Part shown: one piece after another, positions 3,205 through 62,358 of the stretch | How the letters are laid out: each line of letters opens with the position of its first letter | Position numbering within the stretch: position 1 is the stretch's first letter | Assembly: GCA_905233975.1 (NCBI GenBank) | Contig: CAJOGD010000001.1 | Location: 86,263 to 150,262, forward strand | Direction: 5' to 3' | DNA length: 64,000 bases | Origin: an uncultured Alphaproteobacteria bacterium | Lineage (GTDB): Bacteria; Pseudomonadota; Alphaproteobacteria; Rs-D84 | Translations under genes and position numbers: made by a program | Notes under the pieces: generated by a model | The model's input: only the letters and a program-made list of their open reading frames with translations | Told to the model about the DNA's origin: nothing | Database searches by the model: none

Positions 3205-3207
3205 AGG

Positions 3208-3302
3208 ATAGTGTTAGTGCAAGTGGTTAGTGTAAGTGCGGGCGCGTTGCGCCCGTTTGTGTTCCCGACCCACTAACCACTAATCACTAACACTTACACT
3301 AA
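3208..3302. repeat. MITE-like palindromic repeat, copy R1. Arms built from AGTGTTAGTG / CACTAACACT units around a GC hairpin CGGGCGCGTTGCGCCCG.
   Basis: Left arm tagtgttagtgcaagtggttagtgtaagtg (3208-3238) is the reverse complement of right arm cactaaccactaatcactaacacttacact (3271-3300). Same family recurs at 4768, 22507, 51768 and 62321. Confidence 0.8.
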
Positions 3303-4366
3303 TTCTGATTCTGTGGGATATAGACGTTTTCGTTATATGTTGTTTCTGTCCAATCTTCTTCAAGCGGTGTGGCCAGTAGGTATATTACGATTACAGGTGT
3401 GCCTGCTGCGTATTGTGCGGCAAGATATTGTTTCCAATCTTCAACACTTGTGCAATCGTTGTATTTAAAAGAAAAAACACCGGATGTAGTACCTGTTGCA
3501 TAAGTTTGTTTTACGCTTCCGTCTGGCATATTAGCATTTGACGCGTCAGACCCAACGAAAAGATTTGACAACGCTGGTTTCGGCGGGTTACAAGACAACA
3601 CGTCGGCAAAACTAGCATAAAATACATTGTAATTGTTAATTTTTGTCCAGTTTTCCGTTCCATCAAGTACTTTTACACCAACGCGTCTTGTGATTTTGTG
3701 TGTGGTGGCGTCGAAAGAATCGGCATAGTCACCGACTTTGCGTAATACCATATCGCCCTGGCGATAGAAAACGGGATAAATCGGATTCGTTGGCGTTGGT
3801 GTGCCGTTTTGGGTGGCGGTACCAGTTGCCGAAACGTATTCTGTATTGTTATGTATCGTATAAAGCCAACAAAGTCCGGACACCGGATCGCGGTTTTCGG
3901 AACAAACGAATTCACTATCAAGTCCGTTTTTAAGTGCCGCATTAAATGTTTTTGCGTCGATTAAATTATCAGATTGTTCCGCATACGCGCCGGTTGCTTG
4001 GTAAATTCCCTTTTGTCCGATTTGTCCGGCCGTTCCGGTATATGTGACCGCGGTGTGATCGTTAAACGGGTCTATGTCGTCCTGTTTTTGGTTTAGTTTT
4101 GTATTTACACCACCAACCATGGGCAGTGATGTGTCGGTAGTACTGGTTCCCAAATCAGATTTGACTGCGCGTTTCTGCACCGTTCCGGCCGCGTTTGTGT
4201 ATTCCATGGCTTTGTTTTGTTCCGCGTCGAATTTGTTTTGTCGCGTATCAAGTTCATGTTCGACATATTTCAATGACGTTGCGGTTTTGCGGTCCGCCGC
4301 TTCTTCGGCAAACGCCGGCAACACCGCCGCCAACAATCCGAACATCAAAAACTTTTTCAACTGCAT
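3299..4366 (-). CDS. secreted protein, paralog family A copy 1. Sec signal peptide; Thr/Gly/Asn-rich with a variable C-terminal half.
   Basis: N-terminus MQLKKFLMFGLLAAVLPAFA-EEA is a signal peptide. About 85-90 percent identical over the first ~160 aa to ORF 37882..38988. AGGAGA SD sits 8 nt upstream. Confidence 0.7.
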   Translation of the reverse strand: MQLKKFLMFGLLAAVLPAFAEEAADRKTATSLKYVEHELDTRQNKFDAEQNKAMEYTNAAGTVQKRAVKSDLGTSTTDTSLPMVGGVNTKLNQKQDDIDPFNDHTAVTYTGTAGQIGQKGIYQATGAYAEQSDNLIDAKTFNAALKNGLDSEFVCSENRDPVSGLCWLYTIHNNTEYVSATGTATQNGTPTPTNPIYPVFYRQGDMVLRKVGDYADSFDATTHKITRRVGVKVLDGTENWTKINNYNVFYASFADVLSCNPPKPALSNLFVGSDASNANMPDGSVKQTYATGTTSGVFSFKYNDCTSVEDWKQYLAAQYAAGTPVIVIYLLATPLEEDWTETTYNENVYIPQNQN

Positions 4367-4390
4367 TTAACTCTCCTTTCTCTTTTTTTT

Positions 4391-4487
4391 CCGTCATCCC
4401 GCGCTTGACGCGGGATCTCCTCAGGCTTTCCTGAGAATTAACTCTCTGCCGGTCCAACGGGATTCCGGCTTTCGCCGGAATGACGGC
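4391..4487 (-). promoter_or_regulatory. structured 5-prime leader element of paralog-A gene. Three hairpins closed by a CCGUCAU/AUGACGG helix; riboswitch-like.
   Basis: On the gene strand, GCCGUCAU..UCCGGC-GAAA-GCCGGA..CUCAGG-AAAG-CCUGAG..UCCCGCG-UCAAG-CGCGGGA..AUGACGG lies directly upstream of the SD. The second copy at 39014..39152 has compensatory changes in the last hairpin (ACCGCC-UUUC-GGCGGU). Confidence 0.5.
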
Positions 4488-4564
4488 TCCTACCCGTCTC
4501 CGCTATCGCTCCGTCGCGGTTCGTTTATTTGCGCACAAATAAACGAAACCACCGAAAATCTTCT

Positions 4565-4722
4565 AGTGGTTGGAGGTTAACGACTATGTTCCGAGAAAAT
4601 AGTGGGCTTATTCGATATATTCACCGCCCTCCAACCACTTTTTTGGTTGGAGGTATTTTATGTCCCCGCAGACACTCGGAAGCCAAGGGTCGTTACACCC
4701 CGCCGGCGGAACACCCACCGAC
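4565..4722. promoter_or_regulatory. conserved distal leader box shared by both paralog-A loci. Perfect hairpin CCTCCAACC(N6-8)GGTTGGAGG plus a CCCCGCCGGCG(A/G)AACAC(C/T)CACCGAC box.
   Basis: Nucleotide-level conservation with 39196..39368. The small ORFs overlapping it are in different frames in the two copies, so conservation is not at the protein level. Confidence 0.4.
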
Positions 4723-4767
4723 AAATTCATTTTATCAAAAAACGTAAACAAAAAACAAGTGAAAAAA

Positions 4768-4933
4768 GTGGTTAGTGTTAGTGATTAGTAGATAGTATAC
4801 CACACCCCGGCCTGCGGCCACCCCTCTCTTCGTCGCGCCCAAGGCGCGACAGAGGGGAACTTTGGCCCGCAACAGCAAAAACGCGGGGCATTGCCCCGCG
4901 CACTAACCACTTACACTAATCACTAGCCACTAT
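4768..4933. repeat. MITE-like palindromic repeat, copy R2, with a ~110 bp GC-rich internal insertion
   Basis: Arms gtggttagtgttagtgattagtag and cactaaccacttacactaatcactagccact. Interior holds nested palindromes CCCCTCT..AGAGGGG and GCGGGGCATTGCCCCGC. Confidence 0.75.
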
Positions 4934-5529
4934 CTTCTCATTCCTGTCTTGGAATCTATCCACACCTGTTCATCGGCGATGTTCATCATGGGCAAATCGG
5001 ATTTACTGTCCGAATAGGCACGCACGACATGCGGAATATATTTATGCGCCACCGCCCATTCGTCCATCGCAATAACCTTTGCTTTGCCATAACACAGGCC
5101 GGCGTCATATTTCCATGGATTCTTTTCATTCATTTTCGAACAAATCACCGCGTCAAAAGGCAAATCACGAACCAACTTTGAAATCAAATAATCCGGCGAC
5201 GCGGTAATCAGCAAAACCATATTCCCGCGCGCGCGTTCGTTTGCAACCTGGTCCGCGGCCCAGCCAAACCGATTACGCCGATGTTCGCGCACAAAGTCCG
5301 GAACGAATTTTTTGACCATGTCGGCGGTTATAAAGCGACGCATATTTTGCCGCCACCACATACCACCACTATTGAAAAAGCGCGCAACATAACACACACC
5401 AATCAATGGCAAAAACAGCCATGGCCGCAAACTGCGCCGAAAACAATAACGCCCAAATGCGAAATTCGAATCCGGCCAGGACAGCGTTCCATCAAAGTCA
5501 AACAAAACTACATCAACGGGTTTTAACAT
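4930..5529 (-). CDS. HAD-superfamily hydrolase (HAD-IB / phosphoserine-phosphatase-like)
   Basis: N-terminal DFDGTL motif (VVLFDFDGTLS); 199 aa. Confidence 0.6.
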   Translation of the reverse strand: MLKPVDVVLFDFDGTLSWPDSNFAFGRYCFRRSLRPWLFLPLIGVCYVARFFNSGGMWWRQNMRRFITADMVKKFVPDFVREHRRNRFGWAADQVANERARGNMVLLITASPDYLISKLVRDLPFDAVICSKMNEKNPWKYDAGLCYGKAKVIAMDEWAVAHKYIPHVVRAYSDSKSDLPMMNIADEQVWIDSKTGMRR

Positions 5530-22508: not shown

Positions 22509-22606
22509 TGGCTAGTGGTTAGTGAATGAATTCTGTAATAATCGCGTAATTACAAACTAATTCCAGATATTACTAACCACTAACACTAATCACTAACACT
22601 TCCCAC
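22507..22606. repeat. MITE-like palindromic repeat, copy R3
   Basis: Arms agtggctagtggttagtgaatg and ctaaccactaacactaatcactaacacttcccact. Interior cgtaattacaaactaattccaga is shared with copy R4. Starts at the stop codon of the preceding gene. Confidence 0.8.
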
Positions 22607-22629
22607 TAAAATATGTTATAATACCCACC

Positions 22630-37755: not shown

Positions 37756-37830
37756 TGGTAGCGGCGAAGGGATTCGGACCCCTGACCAAAGGATTATGAT
37801 TCCTCTGCTCTACCACTGAGCTACGCCGCC
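37756..37830 (-). tRNA. tRNA-Met (anticodon CAT; elongator or Ile-lysidine type)
   Basis: Reverse complement GGCGGCGTAGCTCAGTGGTAGAGC..anticodon loop ATCATAA..GGTCAGGGGTCCGAATCCCTTCGCCGCTACCA. Confidence 0.8.
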
Positions 37831-37881: not shown

Positions 37882-38988
37882 TTATTGATTTTGCGGGATA
37901 TAAACGCTGTCATTATACATCGTATCCGACCAATCTTCTTCCACCGGCGTGGCGAGTGGATACCAAACCGTCACCGGTGTACCGGCGGCATACTGCGCCG
38001 CAAAGTATGATTTTAAATCGTCAATCGCGGAAGCATCGTTACTTTCCCACCTAACAGCAAAATACGCCCCACCCACCGCAATGGTACCCTGTACATTATT
38101 ATCCCAATTTGCATCGCTAGCAACACACCGCCCCCTGACAAAATGCGACGTTATCAATGGTAACAACTGGTTATATGCTGTACCAATGTTTGCCATGTTA
38201 TTAAATGCATAAGCGTTATCGATATATAGTGCGGGATACCCACCAAAACTACCAACATGCCACCATTCCGTCCCATCAAGCACCTTTACACCAACGCGTC
38301 TTGTGATTTTATGTGTCGCAGCGTCATATGAATCTTTGTATGTATCGTCGATTTTTCGCAGGATCATTTCGCCCTGCTGAAAAAATTTTGGGTAAATTGG
38401 ATTCGTTGGCGTTGGTGCCCCATCTTGGACAACGGTACCGATGGCCGAAACATATTGTTTCAGTATTCCATTATTATGAATCGAATAAACCCAACAAAGG
38501 TTTGTATCGGGTTTGAATTCGGAACATATGAATTCACTATCAAGACCATTCTTTAATGCCGCATTAAATGTCTTTGCGTCAATCAGGTTGTCGGATTGTT
38601 CCGCATACGATTCGGTTGTTTGATATATTCCTTTCTGCCCTATTCCGCCGGGTTGGCCTGTGTATGTGACCGCCGTATGATCGTTGACCGGGCCGATGTC
38701 GTCCTGTTTCTGATTTAATTTTGTATTTACGCCGCCGACCATGGGAAGTGATGTGTCGGACGTGTCACTGCCCAAATCGGATTTAACTGTGCGTTTTTGG
38801 ACGTCCCCGGCTGTATTAGTGTATTCCATGGCCTTGTTTTGTTCCGCGGTAAATTTGTTTTGGCGTGTATCCAATTCATGTTCGACGTATTTCAACGACG
38901 TTGCCGTCTTGCGATCCGCCGCTTCTTCCGCCACCGCCGGCATTATGGCCGCAATTAATCCGAACAACAAAAACTTTTTCAAAAACAT
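37882..38988 (-). CDS. secreted protein, paralog family A copy 2
   Basis: Signal peptide MFLKKFLLFGLIAAIMPAVA-EEA. Conserved N-terminal 160 aa and internal ITRRVGVKVLDGTE and PTPTNPIYP blocks shared with 3299..4366. C-terminus ends VYIPQNQ in both. Confidence 0.7.
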   Translation of the reverse strand: MFLKKFLLFGLIAAIMPAVAEEAADRKTATSLKYVEHELDTRQNKFTAEQNKAMEYTNTAGDVQKRTVKSDLGSDTSDTSLPMVGGVNTKLNQKQDDIGPVNDHTAVTYTGQPGGIGQKGIYQTTESYAEQSDNLIDAKTFNAALKNGLDSEFICSEFKPDTNLCWVYSIHNNGILKQYVSAIGTVVQDGAPTPTNPIYPKFFQQGEMILRKIDDTYKDSYDAATHKITRRVGVKVLDGTEWWHVGSFGGYPALYIDNAYAFNNMANIGTAYNQLLPLITSHFVRGRCVASDANWDNNVQGTIAVGGAYFAVRWESNDASAIDDLKSYFAAQYAAGTPVTVWYPLATPVEEDWSDTMYNDSVYIPQNQ

Positions 38989-39013
38989 TTTTCTCCCCTT
39001 TTTTCCTTTCTTC

Positions 39014-39152
39014 TCGTCATACCGCCGAAAGGCGGTATCTCCTCAGGCTTCCTGAGAACTGGCCCGCAACGGTTCCGACGGGATTCCGCTTGAAATCACC
39101 CACAAAAAACGCTGCGCGTTTTTCGCGGGGCCCGATACCGCGGAATGACGGC
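39014..39152 (-). promoter_or_regulatory. structured 5-prime leader element, copy 2 (same architecture as 4391..4487 with a larger first hairpin)
   Basis: CGUCAU..AUGACG closing helix, CUCAGG-AAG-CCUGAG hairpin, and ACCGCC-UUUC-GGCGGU hairpin covarying with copy 1. Confidence 0.5.
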
Positions 39153-39195
39153 GCTAACTACTGACCACTAACAAAAACACCACCGAAACGTTTCA

Positions 39196-39368
39196 AGTGG
39201 TTGGAGGTTCAGAACAATTTGAGTTGAAATTGTGTGCTTATTTTATCGAACAAATCCGATATTATTCGCAACCCTCCAACCAATTCTGGTTGGAGTACTT
39301 TTCACCACATAGATATGGCGCAACTCAAAAGGGTTCTGACACCCCGCCGGCGAAACACTCACCGACGC
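39196..39368. promoter_or_regulatory. conserved distal leader box, copy 2
   Basis: agtggttggagg..ccctccaacca..ggttggag hairpin and the caccccgccggcgaaacactcaccgac box. Confidence 0.4.
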
Positions 39369-39503
39369 AAATATTCTATCAAAAATCACAAATAAAACAC
39401 AAGCAATTTTTGCGCCCTATCGACACAACACATCAACATTCGGACAAAATCCCGCCCAATTACTATTTGAACATTGCCCAAAAATAGTGTATAATTATTC
39501 GTC

Positions 39504-51693: not shown

Positions 51694-51767
51694 AATCTCT
51701 CTCCGAAATACTCCTGTGTGGATTATAACACAAAACGAACATTTAATTCCAGTGTAAATTATTAAAT

Positions 51768-51873
51768 AGTGTTAGTGTAAGTGATTAGTGGTTAGTCGTT
51801 TCTGGAACAAATCCGTAATTACGAATAATTCCAGACACTACTAACCACTAACACTAATCGCTTACACTAATCG
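51768..51873. repeat. MITE-like palindromic repeat, copy R4
   Basis: Arms agtgttagtgtaagtgattagtggttagt and ctactaaccactaacactaatcgcttacactaatcg. Interior cgtaattacgaataattccaga is shared with R3. Confidence 0.8.
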
Positions 51874-62316: not shown

Positions 62317-62320
62317 AATA

Positions 62321-62358
62321 CACTTTCCACTAACCACTTACACTAAACACTAATTATT
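62321..62358. repeat. MITE-like repeat, solo half-copy R5 (cactttccactaaccacttacactaaacactaatta)
   Basis: A single arm of the CACTAA-unit repeat, lying between the Bro-N gene start and the ychF stop. Confidence 0.7.

Follow-up and report, generated by a model that had tools for sequence, protein, structure and literature searches.

A candidate family of structured, promoter-proximal leader RNAs upstream of secreted-protein genes in uncultured gut and rumen bacteria

Two paralogous genes in a 64,000-nucleotide stretch of DNA from an uncultured alphaproteobacterium (referred to here as the window) are each preceded by a conserved module containing a hairpin, and the question raised by these loci is what the conservation of the modules is for: an RNA, a site in the DNA or a small coding sequence. 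A first-pass annotation had described a hairpin, a third copy of the hairpin arm and a GC box at both paralog loci, and all of these were found to be present.

Two related modules in the window

The flagged motif GGTTGGAGG or its complement occurs as five exact copies in the window, confined to the two paralog loci (4568-4576 and 4645-4653 on the plus strand and 4628-4636 on the minus strand at one locus; 39199-39207 on the plus strand and 39273-39281 on the minus strand at the other), with a sixth copy carrying one mismatch at 39288-39296. When up to one mismatch was allowed, 13 matches were found in the window compared to 8.6 expected, a total which is not above chance; the exact copies are notable for their clustering and not for their number. 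The flagged hairpin has 10 bp and a 6-nt loop in the first module (W1; 4628-4653) and 9 bp and a 4-nt loop in the second (W2; 39274-39295). The 28-nt box was found exactly twice in the window (4695-4722 and 39339-39366; 0 expected), the W1 and W2 modules are approximately 70% identical over 232 nt, and no further module resembling them was found elsewhere in the 64 kb.

The modules had at first been read on the plus strand, but this proved to be wrong, as the functional strand is the minus strand, which is sense for the paralog genes. Across the homologous copies described below, 91.4% of alignment cells pair on the gene-sense strand compared to 83.6% on the plus strand, with 265 G.U cells, and because these G.U pairs fit the minus strand it was taken as the strand of the RNA. 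A plus-strand reading, in which a hairpin followed by a T run would be the terminator, was rejected since both the G.U pairs and the promoter fit the minus strand only. The two units occupy 4541-4725 (W1) and 39172-39369 (W2), both on the minus strand, and the order along that strand is an extended -10 promoter, hairpins P1 and P2, a junction made up of P3-P7, the 3' strand of a pseudoknot, a segment designated segment 3 and a terminator. Alignment of the gene-sense upstream regions of W1 and W2 showed this as a series of blocks (TTGTKT-N18-TGATAnAAT, a hairpin, GGGGUGU-N4-ACCC, the flagged hairpin, AACCUCCAACCAC, GGUGGU and a U run), and the 28-nt box (ACACCCCGCCGGCG...CACCGAC) is the reverse complement of P1 and the start of P2.

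All features of W1 given here are on the minus strand. From reading of the sequence, its promoter (4729-4758) has a -35 of TTGTTT (4753-4758), an 18-nt spacer and an extended -10 of TGATAAAAT (4729-4737). P1 is a 5'-terminal hairpin (GUCGGUGG-GUGUU-CCGCCGGC; 4702-4722), the 3' arm of which is the flagged CCGCCGGCG box, and P2 (4686-4701) pairs GGGG with CCCU around an 8-nt loop, UGU-AACG-A. The loop bases U-AACG-A form the 5' strand of the pseudoknot, for which the 3' strand, U-CGUU-A, lies at 4578-4583. The 5' strand of P3 (UUCCGAG; 4675-4681) has its partner, CUCGGAA, at 4589-4595, and P2, P3 and the pseudoknot are all assigned by covariation. Within the junction lie the P4 hairpin (UGUC-UGCGGG-GACA; 4661-4674), the flagged hairpin, now P5 (4628-4653), with segment 1 (CCUCCAACCA; 4644-4653), a loop (4638-4643) and segment 2 (UGGUUGGAGG; 4628-4637), P6 (4604-4627), placed by alignment, in which GCGGU and GCCC surround a conserved A-rich loop (GAAUAUAUCGAAUAA), and P7 (4584-4603), which pairs ACUAU with AUAG and holds the 3' strand of P3 in its loop. 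The last part of the unit (4537-4577) begins with segment 3 (ACCUCCAACCAC; 4566-4577), which overlaps the terminator hairpin (AACCAC...GGUGGUU; 4547-4571; -8.7 kcal/mol), and ends with an interrupted U tract after that hairpin (4537-4546). As read from the sequence, segment 3 of W1 is complementary to segment 2 over 11 nt, with a duplex energy of -22.6 kcal/mol.

The same parts were recognised in W2, again on the minus strand. Its promoter (39373-39402) has a -35 of TTGTGT (39397-39402) and an extended -10 of TGATAGAAT (39373-39381), and its P1 (GUCGGUGA-GUGUU-UCGCCGGC; 39346-39366) differs from that of W1 by a compensatory change of G-C to A-U. P2 (39330-39345) has the loop UGU-CAGA-A, with the pseudoknot 3' strand UUCUGA at 39209-39214. 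The junction domain (39215-39329) contains P3 (39321-39329 with 39218-39226), P4 (39303-39320), P5 (39274-39295), P6 with an extra inserted hairpin (39234-39273) and P7 (39228-39232 with 39215-39219), and is followed by segment 3 (ACCUCCAACCAC; 39197-39208), the terminator (39179-39201) and the U tract (39170-39178).

A family of leaders with a conserved fold

A search for further copies in relatives, which had been proposed as a check, was run and proved decisive. Metagenome contigs were scanned with the exact pattern AACCTCCAACCACN{2,16}TTCGGTGGT, giving 68 loci of which 66 were genuine, and a profile search (nhmmer) of the retrieved loci added two copies lacking the exact pattern; the same module was also found upstream of paralogs at three loci obtained by exact protein look-up (L023, L027 and L028). 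After de-duplication there were 62 distinct leaders, 173-250 nt in length. As the pattern fixed segment 3 and the 3' arm of the terminator, the invariance of these parts in the 66 metagenome loci is partly by construction, the pattern-independent copies being only W1, W2, those at L023, L027 and L028, and the two nhmmer matches. When GTDB genomes were scanned with the protein family, 22 loci were obtained, almost all of them cut at the 5' end of the gene and of no use for leaders.

The fold, taken from reading of the sequences, was tested on a 56-sequence MAFFT alignment (A3), in which 91.2% of cells were paired compared to 79.3% in shuffles. The covariation score was 0.389 compared to 0.169 when shuffled (none of 500 shuffles reached 0.389), and slid controls, in which the 3' partner was shifted by 1-3 columns, scored 0.07-0.12. 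Double changes were found in 29 of the 53 pairs overall, and compensatory changes thus support a conserved secondary structure.

Taken helix by helix, P1 has 7 of its 8 pairs changed on both sides (93% of cells paired on the gene-sense strand compared to 70% on the other), P2 (GGGG / CCCN with an 8-nt loop) has double changes in 3 of 4 pairs, and in P3, the closing helix of the junction, all 6 pairs covary. P4 is a variable hairpin (91% of cells paired) in which the closing pair changes from C-G to U-A, and P7 (90% paired) occurs in the variants ACAAU:AUUGU, ACUAU:AUAGU and CGAUA:UAUCG. Covariation was seen in 2 of the 4 pairs of P6, where the MAFFT register is imperfect, and the P6 loop is GAAUAUAUYGAAUAA, interrupted in some copies by an additional hairpin. 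P5 is nearly invariant in the family while the other helices drift and compensate. The pseudoknot joins the P2 loop, UGU-NNNN-A, to U-NNNN-A approximately 110-120 nt downstream (further in four copies bearing insertions), its partner being the bases immediately before AACCUCCAACCAC. All 5 of the tested pairs covary, with 99.3% of cells paired (99.4% for the 6-bp version), and the 4-mer of the P2 loop is complementary to the 4-mer before AACCUCC in all 62 copies.

The conclusion of the first-pass annotation that conservation is at the nucleotide level only was borne out by these copies, as distances between fixed anchors are found in every mod-3 class (29/21/12 and 21/25/16 across the 62 copies) and no reading frame is therefore kept. 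It had also been suggested that the GGAGG within the hairpin hides the Shine-Dalgarno site of a small plus-strand ORF at 4660, but this ORF runs antisense to the RNA and lacks conservation. A leader-peptide attenuator was rejected too, with no frame kept and no conserved start codon after GGAGG on the sense strand. The initial proposal that the constraint acts on RNA or DNA can now be narrowed: RNA structure stands, and a recombination or binding site in the DNA is needless given the helix-by-helix compensatory change.

The flagged segments are best read as members of an uncatalogued family of structured RNAs of approximately 185 nt which would form the promoter-proximal leader of the paralog mRNAs. 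Judged from the sequences, this is a well-supported new RNA family, and its kind would be that of a structured cis-regulatory leader. The W1 and W2 modules had no match in Rfam 15 even at E-values up to 10, and a scan of the whole window with Rfam 15 returned four tRNAs only. Full-text literature searches for the motif strings found unrelated primers and aptamers only, and nothing specific to the leader was found in the literature on rumen Alphaproteobacteria or in surveys of structured RNAs. There were no matches to the leader in viral contigs, and no link to phage was seen.

Other paralogs of the same protein family were found to be preceded by a second type of leader (type B, as opposed to type A above), represented by five loci (L026:2560-2800, L029:2720-2965, L101:2225-2460, L018:2265-2480 and L022:1240-1500). 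Type B shares with type A the P1 helix, the P2-loop pseudoknot (complementary in 5 of 5), P3, P7, the terminator and an AAC after the pseudoknot, but its inner domain differs, the triad of segments 1, 2 and 3 being CCCCG / CGGGGUG / CACCCCGA. The type B loci had no Rfam match at E-values up to 1. A search of the retrieved loci with a generic signature of the P2 loop and tail found types A and B only and no third class, and no stray leader copies were found in the retrieved loci by the generic-signature and profile searches.

Transcription unit and downstream genes

The extended -10 motif TGnTAnnnT was found in 54 of the 62 copies, and in 53 of those the hexamer starts 12-13 nt before P1, a fixed distance which places P1 at the 5' end of the RNA. 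P5 is present in the minimum-energy fold of all 62 copies and the terminator in that of 59, and when folded in isolation the terminators (AACCAC...GGUGGUU), each with a U run behind it, have energies of -8 to -9 kcal/mol. Wherever enough downstream sequence was available, the copy faces an ORF with a Shine-Dalgarno site, so that the leader is found in constant position and orientation ahead of its gene. The distance from terminator to ORF has a median of 31 nt (range 18-275, typically 18-47 nt), and because this median spacing is so short there is no room for a second promoter in most loci. A small transcript, as was proposed earlier, is plausible, since the predicted unit carries both its own promoter and its own terminator.

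In W1 and W2 the spacing from terminator to start codon is 181-190 nt, with extra repeat DNA inserted, compared to approximately 31 nt elsewhere, and another promoter could be hidden in this repeat DNA. The repeats between terminator and start codon are MITE-like palindromes with CGTCATYCCGSS...SSCGGRAT arms (4392-4485 and 39010-39150), and one database protein (P0108) has an N-terminal extension that is a translated repeat of this kind. A separate, short palindrome (UUUCGUUUAUUU) directly follows the terminator stem and interrupts the U tract in W1, L027 and L028, and such a palindrome is also found after the type B terminator of L026; in W1 it lies in the region 4537-4520 on the minus strand (GTTTATTTGTGCGCAAATAAAC). 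Termination may be weaker in these four copies.

The gene downstream of W1 (3299-4366, minus strand) encodes a 355-amino acid protein with a signal peptide and has the Shine-Dalgarno site AAGGAGAG at 4371-4378, and the gene downstream of W2 (37882-38988, minus strand) encodes a paralog of 368 amino acids, also with a signal peptide, which is 65% identical to the W1 protein. The W2 paralog is followed after 51 nt by a tRNA gene on its own strand (37759-37830), and there are three other tRNA genes in the window. The paralog family has more than 800 database members, in metagenome-assembled genomes from ruminants labelled Alphaproteobacteria or "uncultured proteobacterium". In its members the N-terminal half is conserved, the C-terminal half varies and the end is a conserved VYIPQNQ. 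Neither window protein had a match in Pfam, sequence searches with the downstream protein gave none in PHROGs or the PDB, and an AlphaFold model of the downstream protein (pLDDT 43) was too poor for use.

Across the leader family, 52 of 63 non-duplicate downstream products had a signal peptide by a crude test, several of the 11 failures being visibly mis-started. Few of the downstream products were recognised by Pfam, which found Listeria-Bacteroides repeats, of a surface type, in 10, beta-flower domains in 3, one HsdM and one trypsin-like protease. This suggests that the leader is attached to varied secreted or surface proteins and not to one family or to a pathway, and no metabolic hint of a ligand comes from the downstream genes. 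In a few cases the genes behind type A leaders encode products lacking a signal peptide, namely an HsdM methylase (type I restriction-modification) and "5-fold beta-flower" proteins of approximately 96 amino acids (L060:3-647, L043:1061-1348, L045:3529-3819 and L072:4930-5220, all on the minus strand).

Proposed attenuation and alternative explanations

Segment 3 (AACCUCCAACCAC) lies directly after the pseudoknot and its last six bases are the 5' arm of the terminator, while segment 2 (GGUUGGAGG) has complements in both segment 1 and segment 3 (CCUCCAACC). By analogy, the arrangement of the three segments is the classical layout of an attenuator. The leader seems to us rather likely to be a cis-acting transcription attenuator or an orphan riboswitch candidate, one which probably decides whether the downstream secreted-protein genes are transcribed. 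Transcription would start a few bases 5' of P1; with P5 closed (segment 1, CUCCAACC, paired with segment 2, GGUUGGAGG) the terminator would form, RNA polymerase would stop and an RNA of approximately 185 nt would be released. Alternatively, segment 2 would leave segment 1 and pair with segment 3, which has the same sequence as segment 1, taking up the terminator arm, and with this arm sequestered the secreted-protein gene would be transcribed. The pseudoknotted scaffold would hold segment 3 beside P5 and is the likely sensor, for which the candidate effectors are a small ligand or an RNA-binding protein acting as an antiterminator.

The sequences show the fold, its strand, the promoter, the terminator, the association with genes and, in both leader classes, the 1/2/3 complementarity. 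From these we infer that such a swap occurs and that something regulates it, and we hold this specific step to be less certain than the attenuator reading as a whole. In its favour, P5 is nearly invariant beside helices that covary freely, segment 1 has mismatches that are not mirrored by segment 2 (for example the CCCCCAACC variants), one divergent copy has its outermost 2:3 pair changed from G-C to U.G, and type B repeats the three-part design with other sequences. The alternative pairing of 9-11 bp overlaps the terminator in type A and the local energies are close (P5, -14.0, plus terminator, -9.6, compared to -19.1 kcal/mol for the 2:3 duplex), leaving the swap states approximately 4 kcal/mol apart. 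Against it, in a nested-structure model the antiterminator costs on average +23 kcal/mol relative to the terminator fold, because forcing the 2:3 pairing breaks P3 and its neighbours, and the swap would therefore need the intact pseudoknotted scaffold or an outside factor. P5 is also a stable local hairpin with variable loops and needs no ligand to fold. In type B the 2:3 duplex is 8-9 bp (-16 to -18 kcal/mol), but because segment 3 overlaps the terminator arm by just 1-2 nt this pairing would not obviously block the terminator. A different route, in which the CCUCC copy sequesters the Shine-Dalgarno site of the downstream gene, was not supported, as this site is predicted to pair with CCUCC in only 6 of 39 folded read-through transcripts.

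In its fullest form the proposal is of a sensor RNA of a new class, either a riboswitch or an RNA recognised by a dedicated RNA-binding antiterminator, which would gate much of the secreted and surface repertoire of an uncultured gut and rumen alphaproteobacterial lineage by a pseudoknot-held strand swap and would come in two or more versions with orthogonal sequences (type A, CUCCAACC; type B, CCCCG). We regard this wider claim as tentative and somewhat doubtful; if it were true, paralogs belonging to a single surface-protein family could be controlled separately through types A and B.

The terminated 185-nt RNA might instead itself be the product, a multi-copy small RNA which acts in trans and for which its location ahead of genes is secondary, or which acts both in cis and in trans, with the single-stranded C-rich stretch between the pseudoknot and the terminator (AACCUCC; ACACCCC in type B) pairing with Shine-Dalgarno regions of other mRNAs. 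The unit does have its own promoter and a terminator that forms in most minimum-energy folds, the CCUCC is unpaired in the proposed fold and adjoins the terminator with its U tail, a layout like that of alphaproteobacterial anti-Shine-Dalgarno small RNAs of the AbcR / alpha-r15 type, and segment 2 (GGAGG; GGGG in type B) resembles the Shine-Dalgarno sites of these genomes. However, all copies with enough sequence are oriented alike and typically lie 18-47 nt ahead of a start codon, which a leader fits better; no orphan copy was seen, there was no match to an Rfam small-RNA family and the large covarying scaffold exceeds the needs of a seed-bearing small RNA. We therefore think a product acting in trans unlikely. 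Because the position before start codons is fixed, the evidence argues that action in cis is primary, and trans action is compatible with it. A leader without any switch is a less likely explanation still. Here the folded 5' end would guard the mRNA from 5'-end-dependent decay or insulate its expression, termination at the hairpin and U run would be leaky, and CUCCAACC would be repeated for tertiary packing or protein binding and not for alternative pairing. That the predicted transcript has P1 at its extreme 5' end is consistent with this, as are the far greater stability of the terminator fold over the alternative in the nested model and the minimal overlap of segment 3 with the terminator in type B. 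A stabiliser, however, needs a 5' hairpin only and not eight covarying helices, a pseudoknot and a terminator right before the ribosome-binding site, and the recurrence of the 1/2/3 complementarity with unrelated sequences in type B is hard to explain unless segment 2 pairs with both of the others.

Explanations at the level of DNA, in which the module would be a recombination site, a regulator-binding site, part of a MITE or a small-ORF leader peptide, appear highly improbable. Recombination does occur in the region, as the paralog family is mosaic and upstream regions differ (L027 compared to L028), and true MITE-like repeats lie nearby at 4392-4485, but helix-preserving compensatory changes and one-strand G.U pairs would be unexpected for DNA sites. 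There are two copies only in the 64-kb window, both upstream of paralogs, the metagenome copies all face a gene, and no frame is conserved. The first-pass annotation had allowed that its box might turn out to belong to a dispersed MITE found beside unrelated genes; the leader does indeed occur beside unrelated genes, but it is no MITE, as it has a promoter at a fixed distance and always faces the next gene. The DNA-level, MITE and leader-peptide readings are, as far as the sequences allow a judgement, effectively excluded.

The preferred reading, an attenuating leader, may be compared with known systems. Like riboswitch platforms and protein-dependent attenuators, the leader lies between promoter and gene, has a sensor-like domain followed by a hairpin and a U run, and has three successive segments of which the middle one can pair with either neighbour; unlike them, segments 1 and 2 here form a local hairpin inside the junction and not a ligand-dependent closing helix of an aptamer. 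In the ZTP, fluoride and preQ1 riboswitches a hairpin loop pairs with a 3' tail beside the terminator, and here too the loop-to-tail pseudoknot ends right before the expression platform, so that whether the terminator forms could depend on the tail being docked, but the present RNA is of approximately 150 nt with seven helices and other conserved nucleotides, and precedes secreted-protein genes and not those for metabolism or transport. The c-di-GMP-I (GEMM-I) riboswitches occur in multiple copies per genome before assorted genes for surface, adhesin and secreted proteins. The leader similarly has more than one copy per genome (two in the 64-kb window) before assorted secreted-protein genes belonging to no single pathway, but it matches no Rfam model and has another architecture; by this analogy, a second messenger would be our guess for the ligand.

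Specialised NusG paralogs use short leader elements (the ops element of RfaH, the leader hairpin of LoaP and the 5' UTRs of Bacteroides UpxY). A conserved element before genes for surface structures could likewise recruit one trans-acting antitermination factor to many loci, and the invariant P5 would suit a protein site, but the elements of these systems are short and the present domain is pseudoknotted and of 150 nt. The AbcR / alpha-r15 and alpha-r14 anti-Shine-Dalgarno small RNAs are free-standing genes with the motif in hairpin loops. The leader resembles them in its exposed, C-rich CCUCC beside a terminator, and in coming from an alphaproteobacterium, and differs in being fixed before genes, in being far more structured and in lacking a match to their Rfam models.

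To our knowledge, large RNA folds which show strong covariation and yet are absent from Rfam are now uncommon, and the leader would be a new large fold of approximately 150 structured nucleotides that includes a pseudoknot, occurs in 62 or more distinct copies and has a second class related to it. Its unusual regulon of secreted and surface genes points to a signal or factor shaping the face that an uncultured gut or rumen bacterium shows to its environment, and the alignment, consensus fold and three-segment model are testable in vitro without culturing. The leader would also explain the mis-handling, by assemblies and gene callers, of the regions upstream of the paralog family.

Several further features were seen around the paralog loci. 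In the slot between a HAD-hydrolase gene and rmuC (3299-5529 in the window compared to L027 and L028), alleles differ by sample (P0001 compared to P0005, 71% identical), and allele P0005 has two different upstream neighbourhoods (L027 and L028). This mixing of alleles and neighbourhoods suggests recombination at or near the leader. Dispersed short repeats (ACTAACCACTAATCACTA), often in inverted pairs around GC-rich hairpins, flank W1 and recur in the window (4767-4924, 3206-3297, 22571-22607, 51764-51872 and 62319-62352). More distant paralogs (L030:2140-2300, L100:1590-1750 and L102:1-160) have neither leader type; at these loci an ORF of approximately 210 amino acids lies 23 nt ahead of the family gene, and a plain TTGACT-N17-TACACT promoter is accompanied, approximately 100 nt away, by a near-identical copy in inverted orientation (AAAGTGT...AACCAAGGTT...ACACTTT), a pair which could be an invertible or bidirectional promoter.
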